From positions 1,963 to 65,962 of the forward strand of contig CAMUYN010000001.1 in assembly GCA_947165005.1 (NCBI GenBank): 64,000 nt of DNA, read 5' to 3'. The notes under the pieces are model-generated. The model was not told the origin of the DNA, did not search any database, and saw only the letters and a program-made list of their open reading frames with translations. Every line of letters starts with the position of its first letter. Within the stretch, counting starts at the first letter, position 1. This document shows positions 3,289 through 37,276 of this stretch, one piece after another. Made by a program: the position numbers and the translations under genes. Source of the stretch: an uncultured Bacillota bacterium. Lineage in GTDB: Bacteria > Bacillota_I > Bacilli_A > RF39 > UBA660.

Positions 3289-3786
3289 TTATTTACTTTC
3301 TTCTTTTTGTTCGCTAAGTAAATTTAAAGCGATTGATAAATCTTTGACTGTACCGATAAGTCCAGTAGCAAGCATAGTAAGTAATCCTTCTCTTGATGGT
3401 AATGCAGCTAACTTCTTGATAGTATCAAGATCTGTAACTTCCCCATCAACGATTCCTCCTTTTATTTCAAGAGCACTATGTTCCTTAGCAAAATCACTAA
3501 GTGTCTTGATTGGAGCAACTGAATCATTTGAATATGCCATAGCACTAGGACCTTCTAGGCAATCATCAAGATTGTAGTTTAGACTATCTAATGCTCTCTT
3601 TGTTAAAGTATTCTTCCAAACTTTATATTTAGCTCCATTTGCTCTAAGAGCTCTTCTAAGTTCAGCAGTTTCTTCAACAGTAAGGCCACGATAATCAAAC
3701 AAGATAAATGAAGCCGATTCTTTAGCAACATTAGCAATTTCATCAATTACTGCTTGCTTTGCTTCAAGTATTTTTGCGTTTGCCAC
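3289..3786 (-). CDS. rplJ: 50S ribosomal protein L10
   Basis: The ORF-track frame extends to 3891, but GGAGGAAAGCAA-GTG at 3786 gives (M)ANAKILEAKQAVIDEI..., the usual L10 N-terminus. The gene lies upstream of rplL. Confidence 0.9.
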   Translation of the reverse strand: MANAKILEAKQAVIDEIANVAKESASFILFDYRGLTVEETAELRRALRANGAKYKVWKNTLTKRALDSLNYNLDDCLEGPSAMAYSNDSVAPIKTLSDFAKEHSALEIKGGIVDGEVTDLDTIKKLAALPSREGLLTMLATGLIGTVKDLSIALNLLSEQKEESK

Positions 3787-3954
3787 TTGCTTTCCTCCTT
3801 GCTTTTTTATATTAAAAAAGTCTTTGCGAAACGGCAAAGACTTATATTTTATAAGTATAAGATTTTGCCCTCGGTAAGAAATTAAGTTCATAGAACACTT
3901 ACTGTCTTCGGTTCAAACTTTTTTAATAACGTAATTTATTATAATAGACAAATA
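3787..3954 (-). promoter_or_regulatory. Candidate ribosomal protein L10 leader with an attenuator hairpin
   Basis: This is a 168-nt untranslated gap between rplA and rplJ. The minus strand contains AAGTCTTTGC-CGTTTC-GCAAAGACTT followed by TTTTAAT (hairpin 3818-3843), consistent with the terminator-type L10 leader of Firmicutes. Confidence 0.55.
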
Positions 3955-4653
3955 TTAGTTTGTCAATGTATTTATGTCAATTTTTATTCCAGGTCCCATA
4001 GTTGATGATACTGAAACATTTTTAATAAATTGACCTTTAACTGTAGTTGGTTTAGATTTAATTATAACATTCATGAATGCCATTAAGTTTTCAACTAATT
4101 TAGCTTCATCAAATGAAACTTTACCAATGATAGCATGTACATTACCATAACTATCAGTTCTAAATTCAATTCTACCTTTTTTAACATCTTCAATTGCCTT
4201 AGCAACATCAGTTGTTACAGTACCAGTTTTAGGATTAGGCATTAAACCTCTTGGTCCTAATAACTTACCGATTTTACCTAGTAAAGGCATCATTTCTGGA
4301 GTAGCTATAATAACATCGAAATCTAACCAGTTTTCTTTAGCTATCTTATCGATTAATTCTTCTCCTCCAACAAATTCAGCACCTGCAGTACTTGCAGCTT
4401 TACTTTGTGCATCGTTCTTAGTTAATACTAATACTCTCTTAGCTTTACCAGTTCCATTTGGAAGAACTAAAGCTCCTCTAACTTGTTGATCAGTTTTTTT
4501 AGTATCTACGTTTAATCTTACTGCTATTTCTACTGAGCCATCAAATTTAGAAGTACTAGTCTTTTTAACTAATTCTACAGCTTCTTCTTTAGTATAAGCT
4601 TTATGCTTTTCTACTAATTCCATAGCTTTTATATATTTTTTACCTTTCTTCAT
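3955..4653 (-). CDS. rplA: 50S ribosomal protein L1
   Basis: 232 aa containing ...GTGKAKRVLVLT...IATPEMMPLLGKIGKLLGPRGLMPNPKTGTVT, with RBS AGGAGGT. Confidence 0.97.
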   Translation of the reverse strand: MKKGKKYIKAMELVEKHKAYTKEEAVELVKKTSTSKFDGSVEIAVRLNVDTKKTDQQVRGALVLPNGTGKAKRVLVLTKNDAQSKAASTAGAEFVGGEELIDKIAKENWLDFDVIIATPEMMPLLGKIGKLLGPRGLMPNPKTGTVTTDVAKAIEDVKKGRIEFRTDSYGNVHAIIGKVSFDEAKLVENLMAFMNVIIKSKPTTVKGQFIKNVSVSSTMGPGIKIDINTLTN

Positions 4654-17121: not shown

Positions 17122-19038
17122 ATGAAAAAAAGAAAAATAATGCTTAAAATAATAATTATTTTTATATTCTTTATATATGCTTTTTTTGGATTATTTTATT
17201 TATATATAAGACTAAGTCCTAAATTAAATTTAAAAAAAGCAAATACTATTATTTTATATGATAAAGATAATAAAGAATTCTTTAGAGGTAATGGCTCTAA
17301 AGAATGGATTGATCTAAAAAATATAGATAAAGATTTAATAAATGCTACTATATCTACTGAAGATAAAAGATTTTATGAACATAATGGTTTTGATTATATA
17401 AGAATTATTAAATCTTTATTTATTAATTTAAAATCCGGTTCTATTAAAGAAGGCGCATCCACTATTACTCAGCAATATTCTAGGAATTTATATCTTAATT
17501 TTGATAGAACATTAACTAGAAAAATAAAAGAGGCTTATTTAGCTTTTAAAATGGAAATCAATTATTCTAAGGATGAAATACTTGAAGGTTATTTAAATAC
17601 TATTAATTATGGTAATGGTGTTCTTGGTATAGAAAATGCTTCTAAATATTATTTTAATAAATCTTCTAAAGATTTATCTCTAGGAGAAGCAAGTATACTT
17701 GCAGGAATACCTGCCTCTCCCCAAGATTATTCACCTATAAATGATTTAAATACCTCAAAAAGAAGACAAAAGATAATATTAGATAAAATGGTTAAAAACA
17801 AATATATAACTGAAGATGAGGCTAAAAATGCCTATAATGAAGAATTGGTTTTTTATGGTAAAAAAGAAAAATTGAATTTAACTACATTAATGTATTATAA
17901 AGATGCTGTTATGAATGAACTTAATAATCTAGAAGTAATACCAAAGGATTATATAGAAAATAACAGTATTAAAATATATACTAATTTAGATTTAGAAGCA
18001 CAAACTAAATTAGATGAATCAATTAAAAATAATGTTAATAATGATTTAGAACTATCTAGTGTAATGATTGAAAATAAAACAGGAAAAATAATAGCACTTG
18101 CAGGTGGAAAAGACTATGAAAAAAGCCAATATAATAGAGCATTATATTCTAAAAGACAAGTTGGTTCTACTTTAAAACCATTTTTATATTATACTGCTTT
18201 AGAAAATGGATTTACTGCTTCATCAGAATTTATGTCTAAAAAAACATCTTTTAATCTTGGAAATGAAGTATATAAACCAAATAATGCCGGAAATATATAT
18301 GCCAATAGAAAGATTCCTATGATTTTAGCACTAGCATATTCAGATAATATTTATGCCCTAAAAACAAATATGTTTTTAGGAGATAATCAATTAGTAAACA
18401 CATTAAATAAGGTTGGTATAGATAGTGTTGATAATAATGTTTCACTTCCACTTGGAACAAGTGAAATAAATATTATAAAACTAACTTCTGGATATAAAGT
18501 ACTAGCTAATGAAGGAAAAAAGAATAATAATTATTTTATTAGGGAAATAAAATCTAAAGATAATAAAATATTATATAAATTTAATCAAGAAGAAAAACAA
18601 GTTTTAAATAATAATTATGTGTATATATTAAGTGAATTATTAAGAAATTGTTATGATTACGGATTAGTAGATTATAACTCTCCAACATGTCTATCAATCA
18701 GACCAAAAATAACAAAAAAATATGCTATTAAAACAGGTAGTACTAATACTGATTCACTTATAGTAGGTTATAATAAAGATTATACTTTAGGAGTATGGGT
18801 TGGATATGATGATAATAAAAAATTAAGTGATAAAGATAATTCTATATCAAAAAATATATGGGTAGATACTATGGAGAATTATCTAAGAAATAAAAGTGAT
18901 TCTTGGTTTTATAAACCAAGAGATGTTAATGCCGTACTAGTTAATCCATTAAATGGAAAACTAGCTACTAATGAATCTAAGAAAAAGAAATTCATATATT
19001 ACTTAAAAGGTACTGAACCAACTGAAATAGATAAATAA
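17122..19038 (+). CDS. Class A penicillin-binding protein (glycosyltransferase + transpeptidase)
   Basis: It has an N-terminal TM helix, EDKRFYEHNGFD and GASTITQQ (GT51 motifs), and STLKP, SDN and KTGS (transpeptidase motifs). Confidence 0.92.
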   Translation: MKKRKIMLKIIIIFIFFIYAFFGLFYLYIRLSPKLNLKKANTIILYDKDNKEFFRGNGSKEWIDLKNIDKDLINATISTEDKRFYEHNGFDYIRIIKSLFINLKSGSIKEGASTITQQYSRNLYLNFDRTLTRKIKEAYLAFKMEINYSKDEILEGYLNTINYGNGVLGIENASKYYFNKSSKDLSLGEASILAGIPASPQDYSPINDLNTSKRRQKIILDKMVKNKYITEDEAKNAYNEELVFYGKKEKLNLTTLMYYKDAVMNELNNLEVIPKDYIENNSIKIYTNLDLEAQTKLDESIKNNVNNDLELSSVMIENKTGKIIALAGGKDYEKSQYNRALYSKRQVGSTLKPFLYYTALENGFTASSEFMSKKTSFNLGNEVYKPNNAGNIYANRKIPMILALAYSDNIYALKTNMFLGDNQLVNTLNKVGIDSVDNNVSLPLGTSEINIIKLTSGYKVLANEGKKNNNYFIREIKSKDNKILYKFNQEEKQVLNNNYVYILSELLRNCYDYGLVDYNSPTCLSIRPKITKKYAIKTGSTNTDSLIVGYNKDYTLGVWVGYDDNKKLSDKDNSISKNIWVDTMENYLRNKSDSWFYKPRDVNAVLVNPLNGKLATNESKKKKFIYYLKGTEPTEIDK

Positions 19039-19065
19039 AAAAAGAGACAAATGTCTCTTTTTTTA
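19037..19065. terminator. Bidirectional terminator between the PBP gene and the giant gene
   Basis: AAAAAAGAGAC-AAAT-GTCTCTTTTTTT lies between convergent stop codons. Confidence 0.8.
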
Positions 19066-22000
19066 GTTTGTACTCTTCTTCCAATAATATTGTCTATATG
19101 TAGTTTTTAAATACGTTGCATTATCTGATGTATTAGTTAATGTTAAATCTGTACCACTTGTTGCATCTGGTAAAGTAGATACAAACCATCCATTAGGATC
19201 ATTAAATGTGGCTGATGTTAATTTTGAACAAGCAAGGAAAGCACCTCTTCCAATGCTTGTGACTCCGCTTCCGATTGTCACTGATGTTAAATTTGAGCAA
19301 CCGACGAATGCGGCATTTCCGATGCTTGTGACTCCACTTCCGATTGTTACCGTTGTTAAGTTTGCACAACTATCAAATGCGTCATCACCTATGCTTGTGA
19401 CACTATCTGGAATAACTATTGAGGTTAAGCTATTGCAGGCGGAGAAAGAATACCTTCCAATAGTTGTGACACTATTTGGAATTATAATTGAGGTTAGAGC
19501 TCTTTTCGCAAATGCATCATCTCCTATTTTTGTAACCGTATTTGGAATTATAGTATTCATTGATCCTAATATCAATTCGTTTGTCGATGTATTAATTATT
19601 GCATTACTGTTATTTCTACTATCATAAGTAGAGTTATTAGGATCTACAGTTATCGTAGATAAATTTTCACAACCATAAAATGCATCAGTACCAATACTTG
19701 TGACTCCACTTCCCATTACTATTGACACTAAATTTTCACAATCTCCAAATGCATTACTTCCAATGCTTGTGACACCGTTTGGAATTATTATTCCTGTTAA
19801 TCCGGTATTTTCATAAAACGCACAATTTCCTATTTTTGTTACACTTGATGGTAATACTAATTTACCAGATAAATCATTATCATAAAATACCTTATATGGT
19901 GATCCTGCTGTTGTTGAAGAATTTGATTTTGTATAATCATATTCTACCGTAGATGCTGTTAAACCTAGTGCTTCTAGTTCAGCCCATGTTTTTATCATGT
20001 TATCATTAGAATCATATAATCCCGGAGGAAAAGCATATTCCCATTGTGCATAAAGAATTACATTATCATCAACAGTTCCTAATTGATAAATTTGAGCCTC
20101 ATCTAAATATGCATCACCAGAACCATTTGGAGAAGTATTCCATCCAGCAAATCTATATAAGATATATGTATACGTATTTTTATTTAAAGTTGTTTGCTCC
20201 GATAACGATACGAATTGATTGTCCATTGTGCCGCTACCACCATTTGCATTAAATGATATAGTATACCCATATTTTTTCCAATATTTATCACTATATGTTG
20301 TCTTTAAATATGTGGCATTTTGGGATGTATTAGTCAACGTTAAACTTGTTCCGCTTGTTCCATCAGAAGTAGAAGATGCATGCCAATCAGATGTAGAAAT
20401 AAAATCAGCTGATGTTAGGCTTGTGCAACCATCGAACGCATATGCTCCAATATTATTAATTCCCTCTGGAATTGTGATTGAGGTTAAGCCCGGACAATTC
20501 TTGAATGCGTAATTACCTATTTTATTTATTCCATCTGGTAGCATTAACTTTCCTGTTAAATTGTTATCACTAAACACTTTATATGGAGAACCTGTTGTTG
20601 TTGAATAATTTGATGATGTATAATCCTGTTCTATCTTAGATTTTGTTAAACCTAAGGCCTCTAATTGTGCCCATGTTTTTATTATATTACCATTACTATC
20701 AAATAATCCTGCAATTCTTTCCCATTGTGCATATAATACTACCGTTTGATTACTAGATGCTAAATTAGATACTGAGGCACCATTTTGATAAGATGTTCCA
20801 GAACCATCTGATGCTGTATTCCAGCCTATGAAACTATAATTATCTTTAGTAAAAGTATTTGTACTTAGACTTACAGTTTGCCCCGCTGCAGCATACTGAC
20901 TATTCATTGTTCCATTACCACCATTTGCATTAAATGATATTTTGTAAGCTGTTGTTCTGTAATAATAATTATTTTTTAATTCTGATGCGGCTTGAGCCGG
21001 ATCTGAGAATGATACACTAGTTTCACTAGTAAAAGAGGAACTACTAGATCTATACCACCCTTCGGTATTTTTGAAATTGACAGTTGTGAATGCATAATTT
21101 GCAAGTCCTCGACTTTCAATCAACGTGACACTGCCAGGTATAGTTATTGTTATTAATCCAGAAATAGAATAAAATGCATTTTGACGGATTGTTTTCAATC
21201 CATCAGATAATGTTACTGAAGTAATCCTTGAAGCATAAAAGCAATAAGTACCTAGTGTTTCTACGCTACTTGGAATTATTATTCCTGTTAATCTAGAATT
21301 AGAATAAAAGGCATAATTACCTATTTTTGTTATACTAGAAGGTAAAACTAATTTACCTGATAAATTATTATCATTAAGAACTTTATATGGAGAGCCGGCT
21401 GTTGTTCTATAAGAAGACGATGTGTAATCAGTTTCAACTGTGGCCTTTGTTAAACCTAAGGCTTCTAATTCAGACCATGTCTTTATTAATTCCCCATTGC
21501 TATCAAATAAACCTGGTTCATAATCCCATTGTGCATATAAATTTAATTTTTCATTTTCAGACAAAGTTGGAGTAATAACGGCTTTATTAGAATAAGATGT
21601 TCCTGTGCCATTTAGTTTTGTATTCCATCCAGTAAAGACATAACCGTTTCTTGTATAATTTAAGTCTCTTAACTGAACTCCACTTGATACTTCTACATCT
21701 TGATCGGCCATTGTTCCAGTACCACCATTTGCATTATAGACTATCTTATATGTCCTACGTCTTTTCCAATATTTATCACTATATGTTGTCTTTAAATATG
21801 TAGCATTTTGAGAAGTACTAGTCAATGTTAAATCTGTTCCGCTAGTTCCATCAGAAGTAGAAGATGCATACCAGTTATTTGAATTTATGAATTCTGCTTG
21901 GGCTAAATTTGTACAACTAGAGAATGCATTTATACCAATATAATAAGTACTTCTAGGGATTACTATAGCTGTAACTTTTGTATTTTGATAGAATGCATAA

Positions 22001-25000
22001 TCACCTATTTTAGTTACACTTGAAGGTAATACTAATTTACCTGATAAATTATTATCATTAAGAACTTTATATGGCGATCCTGCTGTTGTTGAATAATTTG
22101 ATGATGTATAATCATTTTCTATAGATGATACTGTAAGACCTAATGCTTCTAATTCTGCCCATGTTTTTATTATATTGCCATTAGCATCATATAATCCTGC
22201 ACCTAATGCCCACTGTGCATAGAGTTGAACTACACCATTATCATTTGCTAATGATACAACATTTGCTTGATCTTCATAACTTGTTCCAGAACCATCTGCT
22301 GCTGTATTCCAGCAGTCAAATACATATCCTGATTTTGTGAAACTATTTACATTTAGTGTAGTTTCTTCATAAATCCCAATATATTGATTATTCATTGTTC
22401 CACTACCACCGTTTGCATTAAATTGAACTGTATATAATGGTTTTATCCAGTAAACAGATGAATATGTTGATTTTAAATATGTGGCATTTTGTGATGTATT
22501 AGTTAATGTTACATCCGTACCACTTGTTGCAGATGCTGAAGTGGCTGTAAACCACCCATTTGGTCCTTCAAAAGTTGCTGATGCTAAACTTGTACAGTCA
22601 CTGAATGCATAAGTTCCGATACTTTTGACACTAGCTGGAATTGTGATTGAGGTTAAACTGACACAGATACGGAATGCACTATTACCAATGCTTGTTACGC
22701 TGTTTGGAATAACTATTGAGGTTAAACCGGCACAGGCATAGAATGCTTGATTACCAATACTTGTGACTCCACTTCCCATTACTATTGACACTAAATTTTC
22801 ACAATAAGCAAATGCACTACCACCAATGCTTGTTACGCTGTTTGGAATAACTATTGAGGTTAAACCGGTACAGCCATAGAATGCACTACTACCAATGCTT
22901 GTTACGCTGTTTGGAATAACTATTGAGGTTAAACCGGTACAGTTATAGAATGCACTACTACCAATGCTTGTTACACTGTTTGGAATAACTGTATTTTTTG
23001 ATCCTACTATTAATTCATTTGTTGATGTTTTAATTATTGCATTACTATTATTTCTACTATCATAAGTAGAATTATTTGAATCTACAGTTATTGTAGATAA
23101 ATTTGCACAATTTCTAAATGCTTGATTACCAATGCTTGTGACTCCGCTTCCAATTACTATTGACACTAAATTTTCACAATAAGCAAATGCAGTACTTGCA
23201 ATGCTTGTTACGCTGTTTGGAATAACTATTGAGGTTAAACCGGTACAGCCATAGAATGCATTATTACCAATGCTTGTTACGCTGTTTGGAATAACTGTAT
23301 TTTTTGATCCTACTATTAATTCATTTGTTGATGTTTTAATTATTGCATTACTATTATTTCTACTATCATAAGTAGAATTATTTGAATCTACAGTTATCGT
23401 AGATAAATTTGCACAATTTTCAAATGCAGAAGTACCAATACTTGTGACTCCACTTCCGATTGATACTGAAGTTAAGTCGGTACAACCAGCGAATGCAGAA
23501 GTACCAATGCTAGTTACGCTGTTTGGAATTATTATTTCTGTTAATCCGGTATTTTGAAACGCATAATTGCCTATAGTAGTAACACTACTTGGAATTGTGA
23601 TTGAGGTTAAACCGGTACAGCCATAGAATGCATAAGTACCAATGCTTGTGACTCCACTTCCGATTGATACTGAAGTTAAGTTGGTACTATTTCTAAATGT
23701 ATAATTGCCTATAGTAGTAACACTACTTGGAATTATTATTCCTGTTAATCTAGGATTAGAATAAAAGGCATAATTACCTATTTTTGTTATACTTGATGGC
23801 AACACTAATTTACCTGATAAATTATTATCATTAAGAACTTTATATGGTGATCCCGCTCTTGTCTTATAAGTAGATGATGTATAGTTATATTCAATTGTAT
23901 TTTTTGTTAAACCTAATGCTTCTAGTTCAGCCCATGTTTTTATTAAGTTATTATTAGAATCATATAATCCTGGAACTTGCCATTGTGCATATAAAGTTAC
24001 TGAAGTTGATGTTGTTAGATTAACAACATTTTGAGTATCATCATAACTTGTTCCAGAACCATCTGCTGCTGTATTCCAGCCAGTAAATGTATAACCATCA
24101 TTTGTAAATGCATTTGCTGTTAATTCAAAGCTAGAATCATATACTTTTACTTCTGCTGCCATAGTTCCAGTACCACCATTTGCATTATAGTTTAATGTAT
24201 ATGATATTGGAGCCCAGTTAGCATAGATTGTATGATTAGATGCTGTTGTTACTATTGTTGAACTTGTAATATATTTAGAATATCCTGCAATAAAGTCATT
24301 TCCTGATGTATTTGCATTTCCATAGAAAATTCCATTAACAAGATCATATAATCCTGCTTTTCCTGTGGAATTATTTATGCATGGAATATAATTTCTTATT
24401 AACTGTTGACTTTGATTGTAAATCTTTAATGAATATATCTTTTGACTTGCATATCTATTAAGACTTGAATTATTTGAAACATATAAATTATTTGATGTTG
24501 TTGCTATTGGATTTGTTTCAGTCAATGCGAAGGTATCACTATTATGTTTTATTTCATCATTTGTAATTGTTAAAGTATTAATACCACTTGTAAGGACAGT
24601 TAATGCTGAAGATTTTTCTACAGTTCTATATCGTAGATATGCTCTATTAAGATAATAGTATCTTCCTAATGTGAAATTATCACCAGTACCTGATAAGTAT
24701 GATTGATAATCATTAGTAGTTCCTGTTGGAGTATATTTATATTCTAATCCATAGATTGTGTTTGCTGCTACTCCTGTATTTATATATTGAGTTCCATTTG
24801 ATTCAATATATTCAATCTGTGTATATCCATTTATCTTATATATAGGAGAACCCGAAACAAAATCTTCTCCTGAATTTGCAGCATTTCCATAGAATACTTC
24901 ATTAACAGTATCATATAATCCTACTTTCCCTGTGGATTCTTCTATACATGGTATTAAGAATCTTACTAATTGTTGGCTTTGATCATAGATTTTTAATAAA

Positions 25001-28000
25001 TATATTCTTTGACTTGATAACTTATTACTACTTGTACCATTTGAAATATATAAATTATTTGCTGTTGTTGCTATTGGATTTGTTTCAGTTAATGGGAAAG
25101 TTTCATTATTATGTCTTATCTCACTACTTGTAATTGTTAAAGTATTAATACTATTTGTATAAACATCTAATGATGCAGATTTTTCTACAGTTCTATATCT
25201 TAGATATGCTTTATTAGCATACACATATCTTCCTAATGTGAAATTGTCTGAAGTACCTGATAAGTATGATTGATATCCATCAGAACTTCCTGTTGGCATA
25301 TATTTATATTCTAATCCATAGATTGTATTTGCTGCTACTCCTGTATCTATATATTGAGTTCCATTTGATTCAATATATTCTACTTGTGTATATCCACTTG
25401 GTAATGTTGGTAATGTTTCTTGATCTAGTGTCCAACCTTTAAAGTTGTATCCTGGTCTTGTTGGTGTTGGAAGTGTACCATATGCAGAACCATATGTTAC
25501 ATTCTTTGTTGATGTATTTCCTGTACCTGTCCAACCAGTTGTTGAAGGTATTGATCCACCTGTTGCATCTGCTGTAAGTGTATATGTTGCAAGAGTACAT
25601 ACTCCATATAATCTTGTATTCCCTGAAGGTATTAAATTTCCTCCACTTTGATATTCTATTGTTGTTCCTTCACTATCTGTAGTCCATCCACAGTTATATC
25701 CCGTCTTTGTGATTGTTGGTAATACTTTGCTTGGCATTGCTCCAAATTGTGCATATAAAGTTGTGTCCGCATCCCTTGCCCATTTTCCATTTGATAAGTA
25801 TCCGCTTACAGTAGCATTATTATATGTAGCAGTTGTATTTGCTTGTAGTATTAAACTTCCACCACTTGGGGCTGTATAATATCCATTTAATGACGCTGTA
25901 CTTGTTAAAGTAGATGTACTACTTACTGCAGCACCAGTTGCACTACTTAGTAAAGTAAATCCACTTATATAGTATGATTTACTTGCTAATGTTATATAAG
26001 ATGGACTTATTACACTTGAATCATATGTTGCTGTTACTCCTGATCCTCCCATGCCTGTTCCATCATTTTTATTTAGTGTTATTCTATAACTTCTTGGTAT
26101 CGCTCTCTCATATATATCATGATTTCTTGGTGTCTTAACAATAGTTGAACTTGTTATAAAGTCCACTGGCCCTTTATTGAACGAATAAACAGTTGCATCA
26201 CTATAGAAAGTATTAGTTACTAAATCATATAATCCCGCTTTTCCTGTAGATTCATTTATACATGGGATATAATCTCTTACTAATACTTCTGAATCATATA
26301 TCTTAAAACTATATACGTTTCCTTTAAATCTACTTGAATCTGCTGTTCCAGCATTATTCCATGTTCCTATATAAATATTATAGAAATTAGTAAGTGGTCC
26401 TCTGTTTGAAATTGTTTGATCTACACCATCTATCTGATATATGTCATTACTTAAAACCAATTTATGTTTATTTCCGTCTCTTAAATTCATAGTTGTTGCA
26501 TATTGTGTAGTTTCTGCACCAAATGCAACAGATACTGCTGTTGTTGTGGCTTCACCAAATATCAACCCATCTTCATTAACATTTTTTCTCGCTCCAAAGT
26601 ATGCTAATCCAGTAGTTGCTGAGAATTCTGTTTCAATTTTTAGTGATTGTTTTGTTAATACTCCTGTATCTATATATCCACCATTAAATGTTATATATTC
26701 CAATTGCGTATATCCAGCAGGTAATAAACTCCAACCAACATCATAACCTGTCATTGTTGGTAAAGCTGGTAGTGTTCCATATGCACTATCATATGTCACT
26801 GATTTTGTTGCTGTGTTTCCTGTACCTGTCCAGCCACTTGTTGCTGGTATTGGAGTACCACTAGAATTTGCAGTTACTGTATATGTTGCTAGAGTACATA
26901 CTCCATATAATGTTGTATTTCCTGAAGGTATTAAATTACCCCCACTTTGATATTCTATTGTAGTTCCTGAACTATTTGTTGTCCAGCCACATGTGTATCC
27001 CGCCTTTGTGATTGTTGGTAATACTTTGCTTGGCATTGCTCCAAATTGTGCATATAAAGTTGTATCTACATCTCTTGTCCAAGTTCCACTCGATAAGTAA
27101 TTAGTTACAGATGTGCTATTATATGTAGCGGTTGTATTACCTTGTAATATTAAATTTCCACCGCTTGCTGCAGTATAATATCCATTTAATGTTGCTGTAC
27201 TTGTTAAAGTAGATGTACTACTTACTACTGCATTAGCTGCACTACTTAGTAATGTAAATCCACTTATTGTATATGATTTACTTGCTAATGTTATAGAAGA
27301 TGGACTTATTACACTTGAATCATATGTTGCAGTTATACTTGTTGTTCCATCACTTGTTCCATCATTTTTATCTAATGTTAATGTATATGTTTTTGTTATC
27401 CATTCTGCATGTAAATTTAATTTATTTGTTGAGTCTACATATTCTGTTGCAGTTTCAGCTTTTTCAAATTTAAGACCCGCAATTTGTACTGCTCCATTTC
27501 CTGATGCAGTACCAACCCCTATTCGATTTAAATATCTTCCAGAAGTTCTTGCGTTATATGTACCTGCTGTATTAGTTGTTACAGGTATTACTTTCATTTC
27601 ATATCTTTGCCATGTATCTGTTAGAGTAAATGATTGTTCTCTATAAGGAGTAGAATTACCTGCTCTTAAAATTATACTTCCTGAACCTTTTGCATATACG
27701 CTTACTGTATATGATTGATTTGGTTCAACTAATAAGTAATTAAAATATACATAGAAATTTGAAGAAAGTGTATTTGATGGGATATTAAATCCTTTTGTTA
27801 TTAGGCTAGATGGTGCATCAGTTACATCTATTTGTGTTGGACTAAGTGATGTTGATGATTTAGCCCATCTTCCTGAATATGCATAAGAAGTTGTGTTTGA
27901 TGGTACTGCTGGTGCTGATGTTCCTACTAGCATATTAGGATTAATATTCATACTATCTTGATTATTATAATCAACTCCAGTACCTAAGCTATTAGTATTC

Positions 28001-31000
28001 CAATTGGAATATGTATAACCTGTTCTATTATATGCATTTGCTGTTAATGTTCCTGCAGTTCCATAAGTTAATGATTGATCGCTCATAGAACCAGATGTAG
28101 AACCATTTCCATCAAATACTACATCATAAGTATTCTTTTGCCATAATGCATATAGGTTATATGTACCATTATTTGTCTTTGTTAAATTACTTACGCTTTG
28201 TTTATCATAGTAAATTGATGTTGTAGCTCCATTAGCTAATCTAGACCATCCAATAAATGTATAACCAGTTCTTGTAAATGCATTTTGTGTTAATGCTTGA
28301 GCTACGTCATATGTAAATGATTGGTTAGACATTGTTCCGCTACCACCATTTGCATTAAATTTAACTTGGAATGTATTAGCAGTCCAATGTGCATAATATG
28401 TTTTATCTGATGCTGGAACTGGAGTACTACTTGAAATAGCATTTCCACCAGTTGCTGCATCATACCAACCAGTAAAATTATATCCTGGTTTTGTTACTGG
28501 ATCTGGAATATCTAATGTATTTCCATATACATATGGTCTAGTTATTGTTAATGTCTTATGGTTAGTAGCTGTTGTAAATGGACTAGTATCAGTTCTATTA
28601 TCTCTTGTACCGATTTTTAAAGTCTTTGTTCCTTGACCAATAATATTATATGTATCAGTCATAGATATATTAGTATTTGTTCCAGTTGCAGTAAATGTAT
28701 ATGTATGAGTACTTGCTACCCAACTAAATGAATATGTAATATCCGCATTTCTACCTACTGTAGTAGAAGATACTTGATCATATTCACCGTTACCAAGTAA
28801 TATTCTAAATTTATTTGCTGTAGTTAATTCTATATTAAGAGCCTTATCAGGATCAGTATAACTACCTATTACTAAATAACGTTTTGCATTTGTTCCATAT
28901 TTAAATACACCATTAATTGTGAAATCATTATCCCAATCAATAATATATCCAGTATCTGCTGTCTCACCACTAGCAAATGCTATTTGAACAGTATTTCTAT
29001 AATCGTATGTAATTAAATATGTATTAGCAGTAGCATTAGCTGTATATGTTTTATTTTCGTTTACTGTAATTACTGAAGATTTATCAGGAAGTATTGATGT
29101 TCCTGTCCAATTACTGAATGAATATCCAGGAACTAATGTTGCATCAATAGTTACACTTCTACCATTAATATAATTAACTGCAGATGTTGTACTTGTTCCA
29201 TTATTAGTTACATCACTAATTCCTGTTCCTTTTGTTAATGTAACACTGTATACTGTTACTGATTTTGTTCCTGCAGATGAATCACTATAGTTAGAGTTTG
29301 GTGCCTTTGCTATTACTGATACTGCTCTACTTCCTGTTGCTGCTACTATATCAGTATTTTTATTTACTCCACTTGTAGCATTTGCATAGCTTCCGTTTGC
29401 TACTTTTACTTGATGTTGTGCACTTGAACAGTTACTACTTGCTGTCCATGTTACAACTCCTGTATTTGATACTGCTACTGCTGTTGGAGTAGCACATTGT
29501 AATTTATTTACTTTAATTGTATATGTAGCAGATTTTGTTGCTCCAGTAACACTATCTGTTGCTGTTATTGTTACAGCATATCCAGTTGAATTTGCTGGTG
29601 TGTTTGCTGCTACTACTATATTTCTTCCACTTAAGCTGAAGTAATTATTTGTATTTTCTCCAGTTATAGCATATGTATAAGTTCCTGATCCATTTGTTGC
29701 TGCATTTACCCCATTAGTTATTGTTTGAGCTGCACTTGGATTATATGTACTTGATACTTCTTTATCCGCAAATGTTAATTCATTTGCTTCCCATTTAGCA
29801 TATATTACATGATCATGTGCTAAATTTACTATTGATGAACTTGTTATATATTCTTCTTGGCCTGCTGTGAAGTCATTTCCTGATGAGTTTGAATTACCAA
29901 AGAATTCTCCACTTACTAAATCATATAATCCTACTTTTCCTGTAGATTCTTCTATACATGGAATATAATCTCTTACTAATACTTCTGAATCATATATCTT
30001 AAAGCTATATACCTTTCCATTAAACATTCTTGAATCTGCTGTTCCAGCATTATTCCATGTTCCTATATAAATATTATAGAAATTAGCAAGCGTTCCTCTA
30101 TTTGAAATTGTTTGATTTACATCATCTATTTGATATATATCATTACTTAAAACTACTTTATGCTTATTTCCATCCATTGCATTAATAGTTGTTGTATAAG
30201 CATCCGACCTTGTACCAAATCCAACATATGCTGTATTTGATGTGAAGTAACCAAATACTAAACTATCTGCAGAAGAAATCCTTCTTGCTCCAAAGAATAA
30301 TTTTTTATTAACAGTTGTTGAGAATTCTGACTCAATTTTTAATGTTTGTTTTGATGGTACTCCAGTATCTATATATTGAGATTCATTAAATGTTATATAT
30401 TCTACTTGTGTATACCCTTCTGGAAGTACTGACCATCCTTTTAATGTATATCCAGTTCTTGATACAGTTGGTAATGTTCCATACGCAGATTTATATGTGG
30501 CATTCTTTGTTGATGTATTTCCTGTACCTGTCCAGCCAGTAGTTGATGAGATTGTTCCACCATTTGAACTTGCTATTACTTGATATGTTGATGGTGTCCA
30601 TTCAGCTGTTATTGTATGATTTTGTGGATTAACTACATTAGAACTAGAAGTAATATAATATGGTTCATAATCATTTATAGTTGTTCCTTCAAAAATAGAC
30701 ATTTTAATTCTATAAGTTCCAGTTACGCCATTATTTGATTGGAACCAGAAAGAACCCAAAGTGACATTAGAAAAATCTGATCTTGTTTTAAATGTTTTTA
30801 CAATCTTACCAGTAAAACCTAGTGATCCAAGATTAATTCTAGTGCTGCCACCATAATTAAGAATATAAAATCTATCGTCTGTAGCTAGGAATAGTTCTTT
30901 ATCAAAAGTATTTTCTAAAACATCGATAACCAATGTATAAGTAGTATCTGTTTTAGGAACCCATTTAGTTTTATTTAAAATTCTATCATAAACTCCAGCA

Positions 31001-32040
31001 TTTAATGTTATTTCTTCGGAGCCTTGAGTGTGAGTACTGCTTGTGAAAGTCATAGTATCTGGATTAAAGATATTGCTTCCTCTCCATCCAACAAAGTCAT
31101 AACCAGATTTTGTTGGGGTTGGTAATGTTCCATATGCATTATTGTATGTTACATCTTTTGTAGATATTGCTCCTGTACCTGTCCAGCCAGTAGTTGAAGG
31201 TATATTTCCTCCGTTTGCATCTGCTGTTACTGTTATTTGAGGAATAGTTACTGTTAATTCTTTTACTTTTCTTTCATTACTAACGTTATCAAAAGTATAT
31301 ACATGAGTAATATATACTCCGCCTTCATTATTATGATCAGAAATATTTACTCTATATGTCCATGTTCCATTTCCATTATCAGTTCCAGTATATGATGCAC
31401 TTGTTCTCCATGGTTGAAGTAAATCATCTTTTCCATTTAAACTTGTCCATGTTGGGAATTGAACTCTATTTACTCCACTAAAGTTTCCATCTGTTACTCC
31501 AGTTACTACAACATCATATCCAGTTGGAGATATATTTGTAACATATGCATCTGTTGCAGTTGGAGCATCTTTATCAAGATATGGATTTGATCCACCAACA
31601 GGTAATGTACATGTTCTTGAGTTTAAGTATGCATCTTGTAATGTTACTGTTACGCTTTCTCCATCACTCTTGATTGATGTTGTATAATCTTTTACGTCTT
31701 TAAAGTATCTTTTTGTATTTCCTGCTGCTGTTACAGTATCTACATTGATACATCCATAATCGCCTTCCATGTTATCTGTACATTCGATAAATAAAGTTTT
31801 ATCTGTATTTGTCCATGTTGTGTTTGTTCCTGGATTTATAAATTTATTTTGATTATATGCTTCTTGAGTAGTTAATGAAGAGTCTCTTAAATACCAACTT
31901 CCACAAGTTGGTGCAGTAGTGTCCTTTAATACGCTTCCTTCTCCAGTGATATTTAACTCACTATTAAAAGCCGCATATGCTACGGATATAAAAGTCAAAA
32001 GAAAAATTGTAACAAAACTTAAAGCATAATTCTTCTTCAT
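19063..32040 (-). CDS. Giant (4325 aa) secreted or surface mosaic repeat protein with Listeria-Bacteroides (Flg_new-type) repeats, BspA-type leucine-rich repeats, a GBS Bsp-like repeat and CBM-like modules
   Basis: It is a single uninterrupted ORF. The N-terminal signal/TM sequence is MKKNYALSFVTIFLLTFISVAYA. Other recognisable parts are VNRVQFPTWTSLNGKDDLL...YITHVYTFDN (Bsp-like), many GYTFxGWNT...LYAQW units, and dozens of 23-aa IPNSVTSIGxxAFxxCTGLTSIV units. There is no LPXTG and no C-terminal TM helix. Confidence 0.9.
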   Translation of the reverse strand: MKKNYALSFVTIFLLTFISVAYAAFNSELNITGEGSVLKDTTAPTCGSWYLRDSSLTTQEAYNQNKFINPGTNTTWTNTDKTLFIECTDNMEGDYGCINVDTVTAAGNTKRYFKDVKDYTTSIKSDGESVTVTLQDAYLNSRTCTLPVGGSNPYLDKDAPTATDAYVTNISPTGYDVVVTGVTDGNFSGVNRVQFPTWTSLNGKDDLLQPWRTSASYTGTDNGNGTWTYRVNISDHNNEGGVYITHVYTFDNVSNERKVKELTVTIPQITVTADANGGNIPSTTGWTGTGAISTKDVTYNNAYGTLPTPTKSGYDFVGWRGSNIFNPDTMTFTSSTHTQGSEEITLNAGVYDRILNKTKWVPKTDTTYTLVIDVLENTFDKELFLATDDRFYILNYGGSTRINLGSLGFTGKIVKTFKTRSDFSNVTLGSFWFQSNNGVTGTYRIKMSIFEGTTINDYEPYYITSSSNVVNPQNHTITAEWTPSTYQVIASSNGGTISSTTGWTGTGNTSTKNATYKSAYGTLPTVSRTGYTLKGWSVLPEGYTQVEYITFNESQYIDTGVPSKQTLKIESEFSTTVNKKLFFGARRISSADSLVFGYFTSNTAYVGFGTRSDAYTTTINAMDGNKHKVVLSNDIYQIDDVNQTISNRGTLANFYNIYIGTWNNAGTADSRMFNGKVYSFKIYDSEVLVRDYIPCIEESTGKVGLYDLVSGEFFGNSNSSGNDFTAGQEEYITSSSIVNLAHDHVIYAKWEANELTFADKEVSSTYNPSAAQTITNGVNAATNGSGTYTYAITGENTNNYFSLSGRNIVVAANTPANSTGYAVTITATDSVTGATKSATYTIKVNKLQCATPTAVAVSNTGVVTWTASSNCSSAQHQVKVANGSYANATSGVNKNTDIVAATGSRAVSVIAKAPNSNYSDSSAGTKSVTVYSVTLTKGTGISDVTNNGTSTTSAVNYINGRSVTIDATLVPGYSFSNWTGTSILPDKSSVITVNENKTYTANATANTYLITYDYRNTVQIAFASGETADTGYIIDWDNDFTINGVFKYGTNAKRYLVIGSYTDPDKALNIELTTANKFRILLGNGEYDQVSSTTVGRNADITYSFSWVASTHTYTFTATGTNTNISMTDTYNIIGQGTKTLKIGTRDNRTDTSPFTTATNHKTLTITRPYVYGNTLDIPDPVTKPGYNFTGWYDAATGGNAISSSTPVPASDKTYYAHWTANTFQVKFNANGGSGTMSNQSFTYDVAQALTQNAFTRTGYTFIGWSRLANGATTSIYYDKQSVSNLTKTNNGTYNLYALWQKNTYDVVFDGNGSTSGSMSDQSLTYGTAGTLTANAYNRTGYTYSNWNTNSLGTGVDYNNQDSMNINPNMLVGTSAPAVPSNTTSYAYSGRWAKSSTSLSPTQIDVTDAPSSLITKGFNIPSNTLSSNFYVYFNYLLVEPNQSYTVSVYAKGSGSIILRAGNSTPYREQSFTLTDTWQRYEMKVIPVTTNTAGTYNARTSGRYLNRIGVGTASGNGAVQIAGLKFEKAETATEYVDSTNKLNLHAEWITKTYTLTLDKNDGTSDGTTSITATYDSSVISPSSITLASKSYTISGFTLLSSAANAVVSSTSTLTSTATLNGYYTAASGGNLILQGNTTATYNSTSVTNYLSSGTWTRDVDTTLYAQFGAMPSKVLPTITKAGYTCGWTTNSSGTTIEYQSGGNLIPSGNTTLYGVCTLATYTVTANSSGTPIPATSGWTGTGNTATKSVTYDSAYGTLPALPTMTGYDVGWSLLPAGYTQLEYITFNGGYIDTGVLTKQSLKIETEFSATTGLAYFGARKNVNEDGLIFGEATTTAVSVAFGAETTQYATTMNLRDGNKHKLVLSNDIYQIDGVDQTISNRGPLTNFYNIYIGTWNNAGTADSSRFKGNVYSFKIYDSEVLVRDYIPCINESTGKAGLYDLVTNTFYSDATVYSFNKGPVDFITSSTIVKTPRNHDIYERAIPRSYRITLNKNDGTGMGGSGVTATYDSSVISPSYITLASKSYYISGFTLLSSATGAAVSSTSTLTSTASLNGYYTAPSGGSLILQANTTATYNNATVSGYLSNGKWARDADTTLYAQFGAMPSKVLPTITKTGYNCGWTTDSEGTTIEYQSGGNLIPSGNTRLYGVCTLATYTLTADATGGSIPSTTGWTGTGNTSTKNVTYGSAYGTLPTPTRPGYNFKGWTLDQETLPTLPSGYTQVEYIESNGTQYIDTGVAANTIYGLEYKYMPTGSSDGYQSYLSGTSDNFTLGRYVYANKAYLRYRTVEKSASLDVYTNSINTLTITSSEIRHNNETFPLTETNPIATTANNLYISNGTSSNKLSSQRIYLLKIYDQSQQLVRFLIPCIEESTGKVGLYDTVNEVFYGNAANSGEDFVSGSPIYKINGYTQIEYIESNGTQYINTGVAANTIYGLEYKYTPTGTTNDYQSYLSGTGDNFTLGRYYYLNRAYLRYRTVEKSSALTVLTSGINTLTITNDEIKHNSDTFALTETNPIATTSNNLYVSNNSSLNRYASQKIYSLKIYNQSQQLIRNYIPCINNSTGKAGLYDLVNGIFYGNANTSGNDFIAGYSKYITSSTIVTTASNHTIYANWAPISYTLNYNANGGTGTMAAEVKVYDSSFELTANAFTNDGYTFTGWNTAADGSGTSYDDTQNVVNLTTSTSVTLYAQWQVPGLYDSNNNLIKTWAELEALGLTKNTIEYNYTSSTYKTRAGSPYKVLNDNNLSGKLVLPSSITKIGNYAFYSNPRLTGIIIPSSVTTIGNYTFRNSTNLTSVSIGSGVTSIGTYAFYGCTGLTSITIPSSVTTIGNYAFQNTGLTEIIIPNSVTSIGTSAFAGCTDLTSVSIGSGVTSIGTSAFENCANLSTITVDSNNSTYDSRNNSNAIIKTSTNELIVGSKNTVIPNSVTSIGNNAFYGCTGLTSIVIPNSVTSIASTAFAYCENLVSIVIGSGVTSIGNQAFRNCANLSTITVDSNNSTYDSRNNSNAIIKTSTNELIVGSKNTVIPNSVTSIGSSAFYNCTGLTSIVIPNSVTSIGSSAFYGCTGLTSIVIPNSVTSIGGSAFAYCENLVSIVMGSGVTSIGNQAFYACAGLTSIVIPNSVTSIGNSAFRICVSLTSITIPASVKSIGTYAFSDCTSLASATFEGPNGWFTATSASATSGTDVTLTNTSQNATYLKSTYSSVYWIKPLYTVQFNANGGSGTMNNQYIGIYEETTLNVNSFTKSGYVFDCWNTAADGSGTSYEDQANVVSLANDNGVVQLYAQWALGAGLYDANGNIIKTWAELEALGLTVSSIENDYTSSNYSTTAGSPYKVLNDNNLSGKLVLPSSVTKIGDYAFYQNTKVTAIVIPRSTYYIGINAFSSCTNLAQAEFINSNNWYASSTSDGTSGTDLTLTSTSQNATYLKTTYSDKYWKRRRTYKIVYNANGGTGTMADQDVEVSSGVQLRDLNYTRNGYVFTGWNTKLNGTGTSYSNKAVITPTLSENEKLNLYAQWDYEPGLFDSNGELIKTWSELEALGLTKATVETDYTSSSYRTTAGSPYKVLNDNNLSGKLVLPSSITKIGNYAFYSNSRLTGIIIPSSVETLGTYCFYASRITSVTLSDGLKTIRQNAFYSISGLITITIPGSVTLIESRGLANYAFTTVNFKNTEGWYRSSSSSFTSETSVSFSDPAQAASELKNNYYYRTTAYKISFNANGGNGTMNSQYAAAGQTVSLSTNTFTKDNYSFIGWNTASDGSGTSYQNGASVSNLASSNQTVVLYAQWERIAGLFDSNGNIIKTWAQLEALGLTKSKIEQDYTSSNYSTTTGSPYKVFSDNNLTGKLMLPDGINKIGNYAFKNCPGLTSITIPEGINNIGAYAFDGCTSLTSADFISTSDWHASSTSDGTSGTSLTLTNTSQNATYLKTTYSDKYWKKYGYTISFNANGGSGTMDNQFVSLSEQTTLNKNTYTYILYRFAGWNTSPNGSGDAYLDEAQIYQLGTVDDNVILYAQWEYAFPPGLYDSNDNMIKTWAELEALGLTASTVEYDYTKSNSSTTAGSPYKVFYDNDLSGKLVLPSSVTKIGNCAFYENTGLTGIIIPNGVTSIGSNAFGDCENLVSIVMGSGVTSIGTDAFYGCENLSTITVDPNNSTYDSRNNSNAIINTSTNELILGSMNTIIPNTVTKIGDDAFAKRALTSIIIPNSVTTIGRYSFSACNSLTSIVIPDSVTSIGDDAFDSCANLTTVTIGSGVTSIGNAAFVGCSNLTSVTIGSGVTSIGRGAFLACSKLTSATFNDPNGWFVSTLPDATSGTDLTLTNTSDNATYLKTTYRQYYWKKSTN
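22685..22960 (-). repeat. 69-nt (23-codon) tandem LRR repeat array; two adjacent units differ by 2 nt
   Basis: Unit starts are at 22685, 22754, 22823 and 22892, with the next at 22961. By my reading, units 22823-22891 and 22892-22960 are identical except CC/TT. Confidence 0.85.
22961..23419 (-). repeat. 306-nt-period tandem duplication with about 153-nt near-identical cores
   Basis: 22961-23113 and 23267-23419 differ at 2 positions by my reading. Both encode NLSTITVDSNNSTYDSRNNSNAIIKTSTNELIVGSKNTVIPNSVTSIG. A diverged third copy lies at about 19540-19680. Confidence 0.85.
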
Positions 32041-32063: not shown

Positions 32064-32093
32064 ATTATACCACTTTTGTCAATAATTAATCAA
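32064..32093 (-). promoter_or_regulatory. Putative sigma-A promoter of the giant gene (TTGATT-18 nt-TATAAT, with the last 3 spacer nt TGG giving an extended -10)
   Basis: On the minus strand, TTGATT is at 32093..32088 and TGGTATAAT at 32072..32064, about 24 nt upstream of the ATG. Confidence 0.5.
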
Positions 32094-32100
32094 GTCTTAA

Positions 32101-32127
32101 TATATATATATTTATATATATATATAT
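32101..32127. repeat. (TA)5 and (TA)7 dinucleotide tracts
   Basis: tatatatata is at 32101-32110 and tatatatatatata at 32113-32126. They sit directly upstream of the putative -35 of the giant gene. Confidence 0.9.
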
Positions 32128-32140
32128 TGATATATTTTTT

Positions 32141-32173
32141 TATAAAAAAAAGATTGATTATTTTTCAATCTTT
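32141..32173 (-). terminator. Intrinsic terminator of the noc/parB-like gene
   Basis: AAAGATTGA-N7-TCAATCTTT followed by a T-run on the minus strand. The stop codon lies in the loop. Confidence 0.75.
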
Positions 32174-33090
32174 ATTATGAACTCAAATAGCTTATCAAAT
32201 TCATAAGAATCATAGGTAGAAACATATCCTTCTTCCTTTAATTCTTCAACGAATTTCTTTATTTTTTCTTGTAAAACATCTTTTTTGTCATTGTCTGTTT
32301 CTTCATCAAGTAATAATGTTTCTTCCATTTCAATAGAAGGATTTGTTTTATCCTCAATTTCTGGATATACCTTATCTTCTATTTCAGGTATATCTTTAAA
32401 TAGATTATCAAAATCTATAGTATCACTTTTACTTGATGGACCAAGCGTTTTCCCAACACTTCTAATTGGTTCTAATTCATCAGTTTCTTTAAGGCTATCT
32501 ATTAATCTATCAGTATCTCTGACATTTAGTCTTTCTTTTATAATTGTTCTTAATAATTCTACTTGTTCTTCTTTGTCTTCTATTCTTAATAGACTTCTTG
32601 CATGTCTTTCACTAATCTCATTATTTAATAAGGCGTCTTGTACTTCATCAGATAAATTTAATAGTCTTAATTTATTAGAAATTGCTCCTTGAGTTTTGCC
32701 CATTCTAACAGCTAACTCTTCTTGAGTTAGATAACCTCTATCTAATAATTTTTTATATGATTTAGCTTCTTCTAAAGCAGATAAATCTTTTCTTTGAATA
32801 TTTTCTACAATAGCTACTTCTGCTGATTCATTATCATTTAAATCTATTACTACTGCTGGTACTTTAGTTAAACCTGCGATAAAAGACGCTTTAAATCTTC
32901 TTTCACCGGCAATTATTTCGTATTTATTACCTACTTTTCTTAAGACTAATGGTTGAATAATACCATGTTGTCTAATAGATTTTGCTAGTTCATTTAATGC
33001 ATCTTCATCAAAAGATAATCTTGGTTGAAACCTATTAGGGATTATATCATCTAAAGATACTTCAATTATTTCTTTTTCCATATTATTCAT
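32158..33090 (-). CDS. noc: ParB/Spo0J/Noc-family protein with a Noc-like recognition helix
   Basis: It contains IIPNRFQPR, QHGIIQPLVLRK and YEIIAGERRFKA (CTP-binding GERRxR box). The HTH region GKTQGAISNKLRLL...ISERHARSLL and the C-terminal end EFDKLFEFIIKIEK resemble B. subtilis Noc more than Spo0J, by comparison from memory. Confidence 0.85.
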   Translation of the reverse strand: MNNMEKEIIEVSLDDIIPNRFQPRLSFDEDALNELAKSIRQHGIIQPLVLRKVGNKYEIIAGERRFKASFIAGLTKVPAVVIDLNDNESAEVAIVENIQRKDLSALEEAKSYKKLLDRGYLTQEELAVRMGKTQGAISNKLRLLNLSDEVQDALLNNEISERHARSLLRIEDKEEQVELLRTIIKERLNVRDTDRLIDSLKETDELEPIRSVGKTLGPSSKSDTIDFDNLFKDIPEIEDKVYPEIEDKTNPSIEMEETLLLDEETDNDKKDVLQEKIKKFVEELKEEGYVSTYDSYEFDKLFEFIIKIEK

Positions 33091-36307: not shown

Positions 36308-37276
36308 TTATTTTAATATTTGCCAATGTCCTGTCTTATCTGAACCTATCCTTTCTATAATACAGTTTTCTATTAATACCTTAAAATTTCTCTTAATTGT
36401 TCTTACATTTACTCCCAATTTGTCTGCAATTTCTTGTTGAGTAATCTTATTATCATTTATTACTAATTCTATTATTTTATTTTGAATATCATTTAAAGCA
36501 AAATTACTATTCTTAATAATTTTATCTATTGATGAATTTATTATTCTTAATAAAAACTTAATAAAAATATTAGCATTATGATTTATATGACATTGAGTGA
36601 TTGATGAATAGTATTCTTCTTCATTCAAATACAGTTCTTCTTCAATAGGAATAAATTCAAAATTTTTGTGATATTTTATTAACATTAATGTAAGCCAATA
36701 TCTTGCCAATCTTCCATTACCATCAGAAAAGGGATGTATTGCTACAAAATAATAGTGAAATATTGCTGCCAATATCATTTGATTTAAAGCACTTTTTTTT
36801 ATGTATTCAAATAGGCTTTTCATTAATGATGGCACTAATATTGATTCTGGAGCAATATATATAATTACTTCTTCTTTTTTTACTCCCTCTCCATGTGTTC
36901 TATATTTTCCATTATCCTCATCAAAATATTTCATCATTATTTGTTGTACTTTTAGTAAATCTTTTTCACTTTTATAATCATATTTGCTTATATTATTATA
37001 AGCTTCCAAACCATTTTTTACTGCTTGTATTTCGTCTTTTTTACCAAGTATTTGCTTATTTTGTAATAAATTTTCAACATCAAATAAAGATATTGAAATA
37101 TCCTCAATACTAAGTGATGAATGAACAGATCTTACTCTAGCTTTAGTAACCATATATTTTCTTTTTTGTCTATCATTTATTTTTATTATGCTTAATTTAG
37201 TATTGATATTCTCTAATAAATCTTCTATTTCATCATCAATATAAAATACAGGTTCTATTTTATCAAACATATTCAT
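36308..37276 (-). CDS. Fic family protein with a C-terminal winged-HTH
   Basis: It has the canonical Fic motif HPFSDGNGRLARYW and the C-terminal region ITQQEIADKLGVNVRTIKRNFKVLIENCIIERIG. Confidence 0.88.
   Translation of the reverse strand: MNMFDKIEPVFYIDDEIEDLLENINTKLSIIKINDRQKRKYMVTKARVRSVHSSLSIEDISISLFDVENLLQNKQILGKKDEIQAVKNGLEAYNNISKYDYKSEKDLLKVQQIMMKYFDEDNGKYRTHGEGVKKEEVIIYIAPESILVPSLMKSLFEYIKKSALNQMILAAIFHYYFVAIHPFSDGNGRLARYWLTLMLIKYHKNFEFIPIEEELYLNEEEYYSSITQCHINHNANIFIKFLLRIINSSIDKIIKNSNFALNDIQNKIIELVINDNKITQQEIADKLGVNVRTIKRNFKVLIENCIIERIGSDKTGHWQILK

Follow-up and report, generated by a model that had tools for sequence, protein, structure and literature searches.

A giant secreted modular adhesin of an uncultured Bacilli bacterium with a candidate donor-strand N-terminus and a strain-variable genomic site

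Introduction

In all TasA-superfamily members of solved structure, each subunit donates its mature N-terminus as a strand that fills the groove of the next (PMC10151520; 10.64898/2026.01.04.697558). TapA, a minor secreted protein of 253 residues encoded in the Bacillus subtilis tapA-sipW-tasA operon and cleaved by SipW, shares its first residues with TasA (AFHDI vs AFNDI) and donates that strand, but it cannot accept one, has a non-subunit domain of its own with a disulfide, and sits only at the start of the filament (PMC10151520). Tip and anchor proteins that share the donor-strand N-terminus and join the fibre by donor-strand complementation are predicted for AbpX-like (Tafi) loci, in which AbpX-like subunits lie beside a polytopic peptidase of family TIGR02228 and a DUF5305-like helper (10.64898/2026.01.04.697558). 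A further group comprises the giant 'fibrillar adhesins' of Clostridia and Bacilli, in which BspA-type leucine-rich repeats (LRR; PF13306) alternate with Listeria-Bacteroides repeats (PF09479) over thousands of T/S/N/G-rich residues. Here we describe a gene of 4,325 codons, referred to below as the giant, in a 64,000-nt window of contig CAMUYN010000001.1 (assembly GCA_947165005.1, positions 1,963 to 65,962) from an uncultured Bacilli bacterium. The giant belongs to this last class of Firmicute adhesins, and its N-terminus resembles that of the putative AbpX/TasA-like fibre subunits of its own host.

As in TapA, a mature N-terminus that copies that of the major fibre subunit stands on a minor secreted protein with a disulfide-type, non-subunit domain of its own, which would likewise donate a strand without accepting one and would be a SipW substrate. 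TapA differs in its small size and its place in the fibre operon, whereas the giant lies in an unlinked hot spot and carries some 4,000 residues of adhesive modules; the two share no sequence similarity past the strand, and the docking of the giant is a proposal. In the AbpX-like systems the giant protein has a whole subunit-like domain and is linked to the operon, whereas the present protein has only the strand in common with the subunits, then a private four-Cys head, and its gene stands at another place in the genome. Many of the BspA-type giants end in sortase, S-layer homology (SLH), dockerin or type IX secretion signals, of which the giant has none. We give about even chances to the proposal that it is a genuine, independently transcribed and Sec-exported adhesin which would be cleaved by a SipW-type peptidase and docked by a donor strand at a fibre end.

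Results

The N-terminus and the fibre locus of the host

The host genome (G000), metagenome-assembled from short reads, is that of an uncultured 'Bacilli bacterium' of gut or rumen and comprises 0.87 Mb in 33 contigs (88.6% complete, 26% G+C). Its only SipW-type peptidase is encoded on contig C3 and is a polytopic S26B enzyme (TIGR02228, E 3e-22) in which the catalytic SGSM and HRV motifs are present. The gene adjoins a DUF5305-like helper and AbpX/TasA-like subunits; the genome holds six such putative fibre subunits, and the best matches of their common profile in the PDB are the AbpX chains 9rhp_A (E 0.005) and 9sj2_C. At their N-termini the subunits read VAFA and then, after the predicted cut, AFSTTLNINGTATV, while the giant reads VAYA and then AFNSELNITGEGSV. 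When the family of head sequences related to the giant was aligned with the subunits by hhalign, residues 1-17 aligned and nothing further, and BLASTP gave the same result. Since no subunit body aligns, the giant is not itself a subunit of the TasA/AbpX superfamily.

Within the aligned strand, the consensus is identical in the head family and the subunits at positions 1, 2, 6, 8, 10 and 14. In the head family the even positions from 2 to 14 average 0.26 bit of entropy and the odd positions 1.2 bit, and this alternation indicates a strand with one conserved, buried face. A degenerate motif drawn over the 408,260 residues of the genome retrieves the six subunits, the giant and one antisense frame only, compared with 0.13 matches in shuffled sequences. 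A LepB-type peptidase is encoded in G000 as well, so that the SipW-like tag is not the organism's standard signal for export. In G047, a genome of the same genus, the giant, the subunits and the SipW-type peptidase are all absent together.

Such N-termini occur in 90 of the 201 sampled genomes of the family, mostly on open reading frames (ORFs) of 170-250 residues, and on giants too. Two such giants come from related genera. G028 encodes a 5,469-residue protein with a full subunit-like first domain inside a subunit/SipW operon. In G144 a protein of 2,212 residues joins a subunit domain to repeats that by eye resemble the Listeria-Bacteroides type (PNGG...EGW), although no Pfam family was found in it, and the 6,969-residue protein P0089 has a similar N-terminal motif. 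Separately, a second polytopic SipW-like gene (L014 735-1940, minus strand; G028:C24:38734-39939) lies directly downstream of the 5,469-residue giant; it scores 46 bits against TIGR02228 and may be an inactive copy. Two of the six subunits of G000 have C-terminal extensions of 130-190 residues, one of them Cys-rich (C3:75244-75378, in a 356-residue ORF; C5:4809-4955, in a 400-residue ORF), and may be minor or decorated subunits.

Several results weigh against docking on the fibre. The match to the subunits is short and is in part that of a generic hydrophobic signal peptide. A hidden Markov model (HMM) of the N-termini of the six subunits places the giant in 8th position (E 0.0055), after a false positive whose match is confined to its transmembrane segment, and the giant is missed by an HMM of the 18-residue strand alone, although these subunit-only models are over-fitted because they were built from six near-identical sequences. 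The model of the SipW-cognate signal, TIGR04088 (34 positions), matches neither the N-terminus of the giant nor anything else in the genome at E <= 10, a negative that says little given that the host's own subunits are missed as well. The giant lies on contig C1 and the fibre locus on C3, so that it is not part of the fibre operon. An AlphaFold2 (AF2) model of the mature head with the adjoining Bsp-like repeat, made from a 3-sequence alignment, reached a confidence (pLDDT) of only 46.6, too low for use, and the strand might pack on its own domain. Finally, the same N-terminal motif heads diverse secreted proteins in the family, for example of 557 residues in G020 and of 448 residues in G068. 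Since so many different secreted proteins carry it, the motif may be a general export or processing tag.

The giant could accordingly be an ordinary adhesin that does not use the fibre, in which the motif is a signal or processing tag for SipW-type peptidases or a relic of ancestry, and which is held by an uncleaved signal anchor or released to the matrix or medium. The presence of the motif on many unrelated secreted proteins, the lack of linkage to the fibre locus and the weak HMM support all speak for such an adhesin, as does the existence of hundreds of giant LRR_5/Flg_new proteins without such a head. However, signal peptidases read mainly positions -3 and -1, whereas conservation here extends to +14 with an alternation of conserved and variable faces; the same segment is the donor strand in every solved superfamily member; and the head retains 67-94% identity even as bodies are exchanged, which argues for a conserved docking partner. 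We consider a giant independent of the fibre unlikely, though still a serious contender.

The head and the retention of the protein

The signal sequence and the four-Cys region noted at the N-terminus in the initial annotation are both present; between them stands the candidate donor strand, 15-17 residues long (Table 1). The head cysteines C46, C87, C97 and C144 are invariant in 11 relatives, and a profile of the head has no match in the PDB or Pfam. In a search of 1.84 billion representatives, the first 163 residues gave 16 clusters; the proteins are up to 3,874 residues long, and the match lies at their residues 1-163 in every case. Across 100 other genera of the bacterial family there are only short matches in the region of signal and strand. 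No full-length relative of the giant exists among 5.8 billion proteins. While the heads are similar among relatives, their bodies are 28-51% identical and rearranged, and in the nearest relative by head (P0121, 94% identical) divergence starts right after residue ~165. Single LRR or Flg_new blocks are matched by 634 giant proteins (E <= 0.001), with 40-57% identity per super-module, the best of which cover 8-36% of the giant.

The C-terminus ends in TYRQYYWKKSTN, with no LPXTG-like motif and no hydrophobic tail, which bears out the earlier report of a protein without LPXTG, SLH/choline anchor or C-terminal transmembrane helix. A sortase is encoded in the genome (C14:18219-18578). Three other giants of the host, a 5,645-residue ORF on contig C3 and ORFs of 3,805 and 2,391 residues on contig C4, end in IQTG, a transmembrane helix and a K/R tail, a sequence arrangement that looks like a variant sortase signal. 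The mode of surface retention of the giant, which had been called unclear, now has two clues: the N-terminus that matches the fibre subunits and the Bsp-like repeat, which belongs to a family with a wall-binding member in AtlA.

This GBS Bsp-like repeat had been placed at about 31255-31569 and was located there by Pfam, with narrower boundaries (PF08481, 48.5 bits vs a cut-off of 31.6); no second copy occurs in the genome. The giant could thus be wall-bound by its single repeat, attached non-covalently to a rhamnose-containing wall polysaccharide as in Streptococcus mutans AtlA, with the N-terminal strand irrelevant to retention. The Pfam score of this one genomic copy, above the cut-off, is consistent with wall binding; the Bsp repeats of AtlA attach to the wall polysaccharide at its polyrhamnose backbone (10.1101/2020.06.26.173716), and RmlC is encoded in the genome. 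AtlA, however, has six repeats against one here, and none of the 12 head-sharing relatives has the repeat, a different domain occupying that position, so that it is not the general anchor of the family. For the Streptococcus suis version of this domain, binding to host vimentin is reported (PMC9377611), and the repeat may therefore be one more adhesive module. Retention by the Bsp-like repeat in place of the strand appears improbable to us.

Modules of the body

The initial annotation had read the protein as a giant mosaic secreted surface protein, and the domain analysis supports this. Pfam finds LRR_5 (PF13306) in 10 stretches (698 bits vs a cut-off of 27.7, E 1e-213) and Flg_new (PF09479) likewise in 10 (291 bits, E 1.4e-88), and the NCBIfam model of the Listeria-Bacteroides repeat, TIGR02543, scores 74.6 bits vs a cut-off of 20.95; the many repeats of this type that had been described are thus recovered by both models. 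A motif scan counts 21 BspA-type LRR units of ~23 residues each in five blocks. Self-comparison and motif scans likewise reproduce the five LRR super-modules proposed earlier, which make up the C-terminal 1,700 residues and share one layout: Flg_new, a W(A/S)(E/Q)LEALGL linker, an LRR_5 block and an NGWF...YW cap. The BspA-type LRR units are shared with the HupY/LrrG adhesin (NCBIfam NF047961, 252 bits over 8 stretches); membership in that family was rejected, as its equivalog model requires 1,250 bits, far more than this score, and its architecture is not that of the giant.

All four copies of the ~190-residue module that had been reported are present. They start with GYTQ(V/L/I)EYI and finish with GLYD(L/T)V, and the block of ~430 residues that holds copy 2 (residues ~1541-1962) is duplicated at residues 1963-2401. 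The module had been called uncharacterised, which holds in so far as no Pfam model matches it, LamG included, but not for its fold: an AF2 model from an 8-row alignment is an all-beta jelly roll (pLDDT 80, pTM 0.82). In Foldseek searches its best matches in the PDB are LamG/LNS domains of neurexin, agrin and laminin (E 8e-6 to 1e-3, TM-score 0.5-0.58), and in the viral library BFVD gut 'Siphoviridae sp.' proteins (A0A8S5P150 and others; TM-score 0.83, 29% identity, E 1.8e-15). As modelled, the modules are two-sheet LamG/ConA-like jelly rolls, a fold that they share with LamG/LNS/ConA-like domains and the gut-phage module without being recognised by Pfam. The same module (GYTQVEYIE...PC...G(L/M)YD) is common to metagenome-assembled genomes of Clostridia, Alphaproteobacteria, Kiritimatiellia and others from gut and rumen, and to gut phages (loci L022-L083); Candidatus Enterousia, a gut alphaproteobacterium, has many copies per genome.

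Of the two regions that had been described as resembling carbohydrate-binding modules (CBM), the second stands weakly, with a match to CBM_4_9 (PF02018; E 0.0027, 18.5 bits) under the gathering cut-off of 25.9, while the first has no Pfam match; searched by sequence, neither region matches anything in the PDB. Glycans or proteins met in the gut or rumen are the most likely ligands of the body.

Integrity and expression of the gene

The gene consists of 4,325 codons and a stop codon in one frame, which no internal stop interrupts, and no other long frame lies there; the uninterrupted ORF noted initially is therefore intact, and it has a promoter-like site, a ribosome-binding site and terminators (Table 1). 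The ribosome-binding site, AAGGTAGAG, stands ~8 nt ahead of the ATG. The terminator of the upstream noc gene separates noc from the transcription unit of the giant. A long (TA)n/(AT)n tract at 32100-32135 lies immediately upstream of the -35 element of the giant; it could be prone to slippage and thereby modulate the strength of the promoter.

Given that the source is an incomplete genome assembled from short metagenome reads, the gene could be an assembly artefact or a dead gene, that is, a chimera or a collapsed or expanded repeat array which is not one ORF in the real genome. An exact repeat of 116 nt in LRR super-module 1 (copies near 22976 and 23282) and the visible breakage of the related locus L013 at scaffold gaps are in line with such an artefact. 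A 306-nt unit is repeated near 22.9-23.6 kb. However, this repeat is the longest exact one within the gene and the remaining repeats are at most 87% identical over 300 nt, so that a collapsed assembly is unlikely. Moreover, the frame stays open for 12,978 nt in a genome of 26% G+C, the G+C content at third codon positions (GC3) is native, the expression signals are all in place, and the gene sits within a contig of 121.8 kb (C1). An artefact is thus very improbable. The related giant of L013 (10001-28736, on an ENA scaffold) is in pieces of 3,238, 1,544 and 1,189 residues; the break coincides with Ns in the scaffold and with a stretch of 40 residues that is repeated, so that faulty assembly seems a better account of the split than a true interruption.

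The earlier remark on a T/S/G/N-rich composition agrees with the counts (T 14.5%, S 11.4%, N 9.0%, G 8.6%). GC3 is 12.7% in the giant and 9-13% in neighbouring genes, and its GC2, the same measure at second positions, is 48.7%; hence the raised G+C of the gene follows from the amino-acid composition of a T/S/G/A-rich protein. Recent horizontal transfer, which the raised G+C might have suggested, was rejected on account of the native GC3.

The noc/argS site

The placement given in the initial annotation, between noc-like and penicillin-binding protein (PBP) genes in an origin-proximal housekeeping region, is correct: the neighbours are a Noc-type ParB gene (32158-33090, minus strand) and a class A PBP gene, with gidB, gidA, argS, rpoE and prfA in the wider surroundings. 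The GC skew turns near 42 kb, which places the giant at a distance of 10-23 kb from the origin and makes it co-directional with replication.

Comparison across strains, which had been suggested for presence and length, shows that the site between noc and DUF1934-argS is a strain-variable insertion hot spot. In G047 and in the contigs L085 and L087, noc directly adjoins DUF1934-argS with no insert. L086, whose arginyl-tRNA synthetase (ArgRS) is identical to that of L085, has the PBP alone between them; L084, with an ArgRS 88% identical to that of the giant's host, has a giant of at least 2,210 residues, almost unrelated to ours, and lacks the PBP; and L013 has a head-bearing giant together with the PBP, in the same arrangement as the window. 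As each occurs without the other in relatives, this one site has two independent occupants, a giant and the PBP, both of which vary between strains. The pattern of a constant head and a variable body at a defined hot spot is new.

Two observations concern the surroundings. The only other PBP-like gene of the host is 28% identical to the PBP of the window, and the best one in G047 is 30% identical. A Fic/DOC-domain protein with a C-terminal winged-helix domain is encoded at 36308-37276 (minus strand), just upstream of gidA among the origin-proximal core genes.

Table 1. Positions of the giant, its modules and adjoining elements in the window (~ marks approximate residue numbers)
Feature	Residues	Position	Strand	Basis
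Giant secreted modular adhesin, whole gene		19063..32040	-	ORF and Pfam
Promoter-like site of the giant: TTGATT, 18 nt, TG-n-TATAAT (extended -10)		32064..32093	-	
noc terminator: hairpin plus T-run, noc stop codon inside the loop		32143..32173	-	read directly
Signal peptide: MKK, 16-residue hydrophobic core, AYA before the predicted cut	1-23	31972..32040	-	by eye; layout as in fibre subunits
Predicted mature N-terminal amphipathic strand, AFNSELNITGEGSVLKD; candidate donor strand	24-40	31921..31971	-	
Conserved four-Cys head domain	41-163	31552..31920	-	
GBS Bsp-like repeat	171-259	31264..31530	-	Pfam PF08481
All-beta 'CBM-like' region 1	~325-470	30631..31068	-	no database match
Predicted LamG/ConA-like module, copy 1	537-731	29848..30432	-	
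Divergent InlB B-repeat (Flg_new_2)	945-1002	29035..29208	-	Pfam
'CBM-like' region 2	1363-1533	27442..27954	-	sub-threshold CBM_4_9 match
Predicted LamG/ConA-like module, copy 2	1771-1961	26158..26730	-	
Predicted LamG/ConA-like module, copy 3	2211-2401	24838..25410	-	
Predicted LamG/ConA-like module, copy 4	2400-2590	24271..24843	-	
LRR super-module 1: long BspA-type LRR_5 block, WAELEALGL linker	~2610-3205	22426..24213	-	
LRR super-module 2	~3206-3432	21745..22425	-	
LRR super-module 3	~3433-3700	20941..21744	-	
LRR super-module 4	~3701-3930	20251..20940	-	
LRR super-module 5; its cap ends the protein, without a sorting signal	~3931-4325	19066..20250	-	
Bidirectional terminator common to the giant and the convergent PBP gene: A-run, AGAGAC-AAAT-GTCTCT, T-run		19037..19065		read directly
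Class A PBP gene, oriented towards the giant (convergent); the other accessory occupant of the noc/argS hot spot		17122..19038	+	

Discussion

On the proposal of docking at a fibre end, the single SipW-type polytopic peptidase of the genome would cut the signal peptide after AYA, and the new N-terminus, AFNSELNITGEGSV, would enter the open acceptor groove of a fibre subunit as a donor beta-strand. Given that the giant has no subunit body of its own, it would be limited to one end of the fibre, where it might be the adhesin of the tip or, like TapA, the starter. Directly after the head, the Bsp-like repeat may provide an additional hold on a rhamnose-containing wall polysaccharide. Both the SipW-type cleavage and the donor-strand docking are what we infer from sequence. 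Giant adhesins on SipW fibres were foreshadowed in the AbpX preprint (10.64898/2026.01.04.697558); what is new here is a candidate plug that consists of the strand only, on a private head and apart from the fibre operon.

A more general idea is that the 163-residue head, as a donor strand of 15 residues plus a private four-Cys domain, may be a universal plug that would clip any adhesin body onto the end of an AbpX/TasA-like fibre, with noc/argS as the site at which strains of these small-genome gut Bacilli would swap bodies, so that strain-specific display would be kept apart from the fibre machinery. We advance this idea tentatively and think it somewhat unlikely to hold.

Guts and rumens commonly harbour uncultured Bacilli whose genomes measure about 1 Mb. 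Here, a genome of ~0.9 Mb devotes about 1.5% of its DNA to one gene in a strain-variable slot near the origin. The occurrence of the LamG-like module in gut phages and in distant gut phyla may mark a common ligand. Should the docking idea fail, the giant would be a well-formed but ordinary giant adhesin. If, on the other hand, its head docks on AbpX/TasA-like fibres, the N-terminal strand would provide a simple rule to find fibre-associated proteins outside fibre operons, and the fibre would offer giant adhesins a route of display that is independent of sortase.

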